A DNA stretch of 64,000 nt from Escherichia coli (lineage in GTDB: Bacteria; Pseudomonadota; Gammaproteobacteria; Enterobacterales; Enterobacteriaceae), in assembly GCF_030384885.1 (NCBI RefSeq), contig NZ_CP128613.1; one strand, 5' to 3'. Of the stretch, positions 47,768 to 48,332 are shown piece after piece. The translations under genes were made by a program, and so were the position numbers. How positions within the stretch are numbered: position 1 is the stretch's first letter; every line of letters starts with the position of its first letter. The notes beneath the pieces were generated by a model, which was not told the DNA's origin, did not search any database, and was given only the letters and a program-made list of their open reading frames with translations.

Positions 47768-48332
47768 TATGTATTCCCTTGTGATTATAATCTTCATGAA
47801 TATATCAATAAGTGCCGTTATCCAAAAAAAAGCACATTTGGATACTATTCTATGAAGTTCATTTTATTTTAAGGATTACATGTAACAAATGTATTTAAAA
47901 GATTTCAAAATGTTTCCAATCTATTTAATATAATTCAGAATTATGAATTCTAGATATATACATTCATGAAAATTATGAATATATATCAATATGTTATGAG
48001 TTGATTGAAAAGATAGGAAGTGTCAATGATTTTTGCGCCAGACGGCCTATGTGATCGCGCGCACATTAATGAAGGCATAAAAAAAGCCGGCATCATGCCG
48101 GCCCAAAAAATATAAACAAGACGATAAAAGGCTAATAACGGGGTTATCATGACACAGAAATCTAAAAAGGTATAATTGTATTCAGTGCTAATGTATTTTT
48201 TGGGTGAATTAATAAAACCATTATCCAAGATAAAAATAAATCTTTATTGCTGTTTTTCCGGTAATTATTGCCGTTGCGCAAAAACTATCTATTTGCTCAA
48301 AAAATGATTGAGTCTTGACTGACTCATCCAAT

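Follow-up and report, generated by a model that had tools for sequence, protein, structure and literature searches.

A hairpin between yedS and drpB of Escherichia coli is very probably the intrinsic terminator of the small RNA RseX

The intergenic region between yedS and drpB

The window, that is, the whole stretch of Escherichia coli DNA that was analysed (64,000 nucleotides of contig NZ_CP128613.1), carries a porin gene at 46574-47770 on the minus strand, which encodes an intact 398-aa protein of the OmpC subfamily. This gene is named "porin OmpC" by PGAP and was assigned to yedS (NF007841, OmpC-subfamily; 541 bits), and the neighbour across a 630-bp spacer was confirmed as drpB, formerly yedR (NF038392, 152 bits). 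The G+C content of the spacer was 30% as against 44% for the whole window. In a preliminary description of this DNA, a palindrome resembling an intrinsic terminator and flanked by A-runs had been pointed out between the divergent starts of yedS and yedR, and it was proposed that it could end a short unannotated transcript. The palindrome GCCGGCA-TCA-TGCCGGC is present at 48086-48102 as described. The plus strand reads A7 (48079-48085), GCCGGCA (48086-48092), TCA (48093-48095), TGCCGGC (48096-48102), CC (48103-48104) and A6 (48105-48110). The A-runs do flank the palindrome, but the second one lies just outside the end at 48102 noted earlier, and the active strand makes both of them as U-runs. 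The features assigned to the minus strand of the spacer are as follows.

48079..48168, minus strand: putative rseX, a 90-nt Hfq-binding sRNA running from 48168 (5' end) to the final U of the U-tract at 48079 (3' end) (Rfam RF01401, K-12 alignment)
48175..48180, minus strand: candidate rseX -10 hexamer TACAAT, 6 nt from the +1 at 48168 (sequence and K-12 alignment)
48133..48150, minus strand: predicted RseX 5' stem-loop AUGAU...GUUAU, with the loop AACCCC here and GCUUCC in K-12 (Rfam consensus structure, fold, alignments)
48105..48119, minus strand: unpaired U-rich stretch UUUAUAUUUUUU, directly 5' of the terminator hairpin (MFE and centroid folds; kept across Escherichia species)
48084..48104, minus strand: predicted terminator stem-loop GGGCCGGCA-UGA-UGCCGGCUU (sequence, terminator scan, fold, dG; stem and loop the same as in K-12)
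48079..48085, minus strand: U7 tract, giving the 3' poly(U) tail of RseX, which is U8 in K-12 (sequence, K-12 alignment)

Identification of the hairpin with the 3' end of RseX

A full-length match with Rfam family RF01401 (rseX) was obtained on the minus strand at 48168..48079 (99.8 bits, gathering score 50, E-value 8e-14, model positions 1-94 of 94), and the hairpin and the U-run fell on the terminal helix and tail of the model in this alignment. The reference annotation of K-12 MG1655 places an ncRNA gene, rseX (b4603, 2033649-2033739), between drpB and yedS and on the same strand as the latter, and this gene ends at the last U of the terminator tract. The match in the window occupies the orthologous site, likewise between drpB and yedS and on the yedS strand, and both RseX ends in the window were set by alignment to b4603. 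Judging from these alignments, the hairpin is very probably the Rho-independent (intrinsic) terminator of the sRNA RseX, encoded on the minus strand at 48168..48079. There is more between yedS and drpB than a pair of divergent promoters: rseX lies inside the intergenic region as a third transcription unit, co-directional with yedS and divergent from drpB. The preliminary description placed the hairpin correctly between the two genes, but RseX is transcribed towards yedS and not divergently from it. The short transcript that it envisaged corresponds to the ~90-nt RseX, which is unannotated only in PGAP pipeline annotations.

The minus-strand RNA reads U6-GG-GCCGGCA-UGA-UGCCGGC-U7. It is predicted to fold into a 9-bp stem consisting of seven Watson-Crick pairs (six G-C and one A-U) and two G·U pairs with a 3-nt loop, UGA (dG -14.3 kcal/mol), and U7 follows directly 3' of the stem. 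The likeness to an intrinsic terminator claimed earlier was borne out, as a G+C-rich stem of at least 5 bp, a loop of 3-8 nt and a U-tract immediately 3' on the transcribed strand were all found. Both strands of the 64-kb window were scanned strictly for a perfect 7-bp stem with at least five G-C pairs and at least six T in the next nine bases, and only two loci were obtained, namely the hairpin at 48084..48104 and the terminator of DsrA at 56563-56589. When the tail offset was relaxed, three loci were found in the window versus 0.27 ± 0.53 in 100 dinucleotide shuffles. The hairpin exceeds the chance expectation.

RseX and its intrinsic terminator are both already known, and the terminator is an ordinary one; descriptions of the element and the RNA go back to 2002-2006, and work on them extends to 2024. 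The prediction of RseX relied on a σ70 promoter combined with a Rho-independent terminator, and the 5' end of the RNA in K-12 was determined by 5' RACE (PMC8313858). Native RseX is undetectable in wild-type K-12, where it is silenced by H-NS, while northern blots of Δhns cells show a band of ~91 nt plus a form of ~75 nt (PMC8313858). The ~91-nt band is consistent with a 3' end at the terminator U-tract in K-12. According to the figure legend of Δhns RNA-seq data, RseX "and surrounding areas" rise (PMC8313858). Since H-NS silences rseX, ordinary RNA-seq or 3'-end maps of wild-type cells would be falsely negative, and the undetectability of native RseX in wild-type K-12 implies that the terminator may rarely be used.

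Repression of ompA and ompC by RseX depends on Hfq, and fimB and ihfB are further genes that it represses (PMC8313858). A crude duplex prediction with the whole RseX body against the K-12 ompA and ompC leaders gave marginal results (p of about 0.09-0.34 against shuffles); the presumed target-pairing block of RseX was conserved across the homologues. RseX+52, which is essentially the U-rich stretch and the terminator, alone represses fepA 23-fold (PMC11979758). Mutation of the terminator loop largely abolishes this repression, which apparently proceeds without base-pairing and requires Hfq and RNase E (PMC11979758). In the window, RseX+52 equals the K-12 sequence minus one U.

The Hfq-binding module and the rseX promoter

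The Hfq-binding 3' module of sRNAs consists of a U-rich stretch, a terminator hairpin and a poly(U) tail of at least six residues, and the poly(U) tail of the terminator serves as the Hfq-binding tail. These elements are all present in order in the window (UUUAUAUUUUUU, hairpin and U7), and by analogy we infer that the U-rich stretch at 48105..48119 is part of such a module. The stability of the whole-RNA fold of RseX was not significantly above that of shuffles (z = -1.65).

The candidate -10 hexamer TACAAT has the correct spacing to the homologous +1. No good -35 hexamer for rseX was found upstream of it in this allele. The poor -35 region together with the AT-rich spacer would fit weak, H-NS-silenced expression.

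A σ70 promoter-like site, ATGACA-16-TATAAT, was observed on the plus strand at 48149-48176, back-to-back with the rseX promoter; its -35 falls inside the stretch transcribed as rseX, and its -10 shares 2 bp with that of rseX. It is the sole site of such quality in the window (11/12 match), a match that is expected by chance ~1.8 times per 64 kb and occurred in 6% of the shuffles of the intergenic region. Across Escherichia, conservation is higher for the complement of its TATAAT than for the rseX -10. That this site is the mapped drpB promoter was ruled out, since the latter was mapped close to the gene, between the old GTG-1 and ATG-22 codons (PMC7648144).

Comparison with K-12 and other genomes

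The window and K-12 share the arrangement of the locus (drpB/yedR <- rseX -> yedS) and the length class of the RNA, which is 90 nt in the window and 91 nt in K-12. Over its 3' two-thirds RseX is the same in both, and this part covers the terminator stem with its UGA loop as well as the conserved block CGUUAUUAGCCUUUUAUCGUC; from position 28 to the 3' end the only difference is U7 in the window for U8 in K-12. Overall, seven substitutions and one indel separate the two RNAs, and the substitutions comprise three at nt 7-9 and four that change the 5' hairpin loop from GCUUCC in K-12 to AACCCC in the window. The promoter-proximal sequence also differs, with a weaker -35 in the window allele, and the neighbouring yedS is an intact gene for a 398-aa porin in the window whereas it is a pseudogene in K-12.

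rseX was found in 4879 of the 5426 complete E. coli genomes (about 90%), a distribution in line with the published account of RseX, in which this sRNA is variable and certain lineages have lost it (PMC3318445). Of the 4879 genomes carrying rseX, 4875 showed at least 95% identity over the 65 nt surrounding the terminator, while RseX plus its promoter, as well as the whole 630-bp spacer, were mostly 80-95% identical; no other part of the intergenic region is as well conserved as the terminator segment. The window allele is rare, with at least 99% identity over RseX plus promoter in only 3 of the 4879 genomes. E. coli 2013C-4282 is 100% identical to the window here, and its PGAP annotation is empty between the porin gene and drpB. 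rseX was unlabelled in all of the RefSeq/PGAP matches listed, and among the annotation records examined only the K-12 reference names it. A gene that is present in about 90% of the complete E. coli genomes and yet unlabelled in the matches listed is liable to repeated "rediscovery" from raw or pipeline sequence. The scientific addition made here is small since the RseX element has already been described. What is mildly new is the rare allele, which is altered only at its 5' end and in the loop of the first hairpin, beside an intact yedS, together with the suggestion on its linkage with the porin gene given below.

Homologues were searched for by a pattern scan with one genome per species, and were found in E. 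albertii, E. whittamii, two further Escherichia species and Citrobacter amalonaticus. The order yedJ-drpB <- rseX -> porin -> was kept in all homologous loci checked, including those of E. albertii and C. amalonaticus. The basal G-C pair of the stem is replaced by A-U in C. amalonaticus, a compensatory change that preserves the helix. The terminator loop UGA was invariant in the Escherichia homologues examined and is UUU in C. amalonaticus; this may be of interest to specialists given the relevance of the loop to fepA. Covariation of the helix amounted to one double change in nine sequences, and it was equalled in 65 of 500 shuffles; this alignment is near-invariant, and six of the stem pairs were preset by the search pattern.

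A degenerate rseX was observed in E. coli P276M (locus 2501-2638). Seven nucleotides are missing from the conserved GCCUUUUAUCGUC block and three more ahead of the stem, and two extra nucleotides are present in the 5' part, with the hairpin and U8 intact; from its sequence this allele is probably an inactivated sRNA gene that still holds its terminator. Coding across the hairpin was rejected, as the ORFs at 47986..48228 on the minus strand (80 aa) and 48020..48115 on the plus strand (31 aa) are broken by indels between strains, namely U7/U8 relative to K-12 and the 7-nt and 3-nt deletions of P276M.

The upstream region of yedS and alternative explanations

The ~170 bp before the ATG of yedS (47771-47945, minus strand) were almost invariant in E. 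coli, E. albertii and C. amalonaticus. A promoter-like sequence, TTGTTA-16-TAAAAT, is located at 47888..47861 on the minus strand, within this conserved block and downstream of the terminator. Since yedS has its own conserved upstream region with a promoter-like site, rseX appears to be a separate transcription unit. The block also contains the motifs GAAACATTTTGAAATC and ATACATTTGTTACATGT, which we take to resemble the OmpR boxes of ompC and ompF. In addition, an A/T-rich inverted repeat, TATCCAAA-N10-TTTGGATA (N8 in Citrobacter), was observed at 47821-47846, with the yedS start codon ~55-80 nt downstream. Both arms were kept in all four species aligned, and the repeat may represent a hairpin in the 5' UTR or a binding site for a protein. 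On the other side of yedS, the annotation of E. coli 2013C-4282 shows a transposase pseudogene of the IS5 family, with a frameshift, together with small hypothetical ORFs immediately downstream of the gene (45352-46520). In K-12, yedS is followed by hchA, which points to an insertion or rearrangement at the downstream junction of yedS.

The same hairpin would be read differently if the rseX promoter really served yedS, so that the hairpin were a conditional (leaky) terminator or attenuator and RseX the prematurely terminated leader of an rseX-yedS transcript. rseX and the porin gene are indeed co-directional, the distance from the terminator to the ATG (~310 nt) is nearly constant in E. coli, E. 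albertii and C. amalonaticus, and the rise of the surrounding areas in the Δhns RNA-seq (PMC8313858) could be understood in this way. However, the terminator is strong, with seven G/C-rich Watson-Crick pairs and U7, the fold offered no alternative anti-terminator pairing, and the first ~150 nt past the terminator are poorly conserved in Citrobacter, whereas the near-invariant ~170 nt before the ATG, with TTGTTA-16-TAAAAT, suggest that yedS has a promoter of its own. Moreover, in K-12, where yedS is a pseudogene, RseX nevertheless works as a free RNA of 91 nt (PMC8313858). We consider an attenuator of yedS highly improbable, and a terminator acting on the plus strand or in both directions, for a transcript coming from the yedS side, is more doubtful still. 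The palindrome can fold on both strands, as the plus-strand RNA forms the same stem (dG -13.0 kcal/mol), but there the stem is followed by CCAAAAAA, without a U-tract, and the terminator scan reported the hairpin on the minus strand only. Since the U-tract is absent on the plus strand, the hairpin would be a one-way terminator of the minus strand, and no plus-strand gene or promoter-like site lies between yedS and the hairpin.

There is next to no chance that the hairpin plays no part in termination and is a chance palindrome, a REP-like repeat or a protein-binding operator, although nucleoid proteins bind this region in K-12 (PMC8313858) and a near-copy of the palindrome exists elsewhere in the window. 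This near-copy, GGCGGCATGATGCCGGC at 9990-10006, differs by one base from the 17-nt terminator palindrome and lies ~70 bp upstream of a match with the EFASI RNA motif (10078-10207, plus strand; RF02957, 90.1 bits). For a 17-mer, the number expected by chance is far below 1 at one mismatch or fewer and 0.11 at three mismatches or fewer. The near-copy has a mismatched stem, unrelated flanks and no T-run, and the window holds no other copies; it is probably a coincidence, and an origin of the hairpin from a REP-like or other repeat family was rejected on these grounds. Furthermore, about 0.3 such terminator-like sites are expected per window by chance, and the position of the hairpin coincides precisely with the 3' end of both the full-length Rfam match and the annotated K-12 gene. 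An RseX terminator on the minus strand, then, is the reading adopted in the following.

Proposed mode of action

RNA polymerase would start at the weak, H-NS-silenced σ70 promoter (-10 TACAAT at 48180..48175) and make an sRNA body of ~64 nt. Transcription of the G+C-rich palindrome would then yield the 9-bp hairpin and U7, upon which the transcript would be released ~310 bp upstream of yedS. Once the RNA is complete, its hairpin and 3' U-tail, together with the U-rich stretch ahead of them, would form a stabilising 3' module that binds Hfq. In K-12 the identical 3' portion, RseX+52, is enough for the repression of fepA, and the terminator loop is needed for it (PMC11979758). By analogy with K-12, termination and Hfq binding are inferred to be the same in this strain.

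One may further speculate, though we regard it as rather unlikely, that rseX and the intact yedS make up a conserved H-NS-silenced "porin-swap" cassette. Upon de-silencing, RseX would lower OmpA and OmpC while YedS would be made and spared, and the strong terminator would keep the two units separately tunable. No support for pairing between RseX and yedS was obtained (duplex -19.0 kcal/mol against a shuffle mean of -22.5, with 85% of the shuffles as good or better). This lack of pairing is compatible with the idea, as are the linkage of rseX with a porin gene in Escherichia and Citrobacter, the AT-rich spacer and the rise of the RseX surroundings in Δhns cells. Such a cassette, if it exists, would be invisible in K-12 because yedS is a pseudogene there.

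Relation to other sRNA genes

Linkage of sRNA genes with porin genes is known from micF, which adjoins ompC, and micC, which adjoins ompN. These pairs have in common with rseX that the gene for a porin-repressing sRNA stands beside a porin gene. The adjacency of micF and ompC was also seen here; micF is divergent from ompC, whereas rseX lies upstream of its porin neighbour and is co-directional with it.

The terminator of RseX shares with those of DsrA in the same window and of canonical Hfq-binding sRNAs a G+C-rich hairpin, a short loop, an immediate U-tract of at least six residues and a U/A-rich single strand upstream. Compared with the canonical terminators, the stem of RseX is rather short (seven Watson-Crick pairs) and the loop minimal (3 nt). 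That the loop also regulates fepA is unusual for a terminator (PMC11979758). DsrA itself was detected at 56504-56590 on the plus strand (RF00014, 102.9 bits), with its terminator at 56563-56589, and two tRNA genes were observed at 10730-10802 (minus strand) and 11794-11880 (plus strand).
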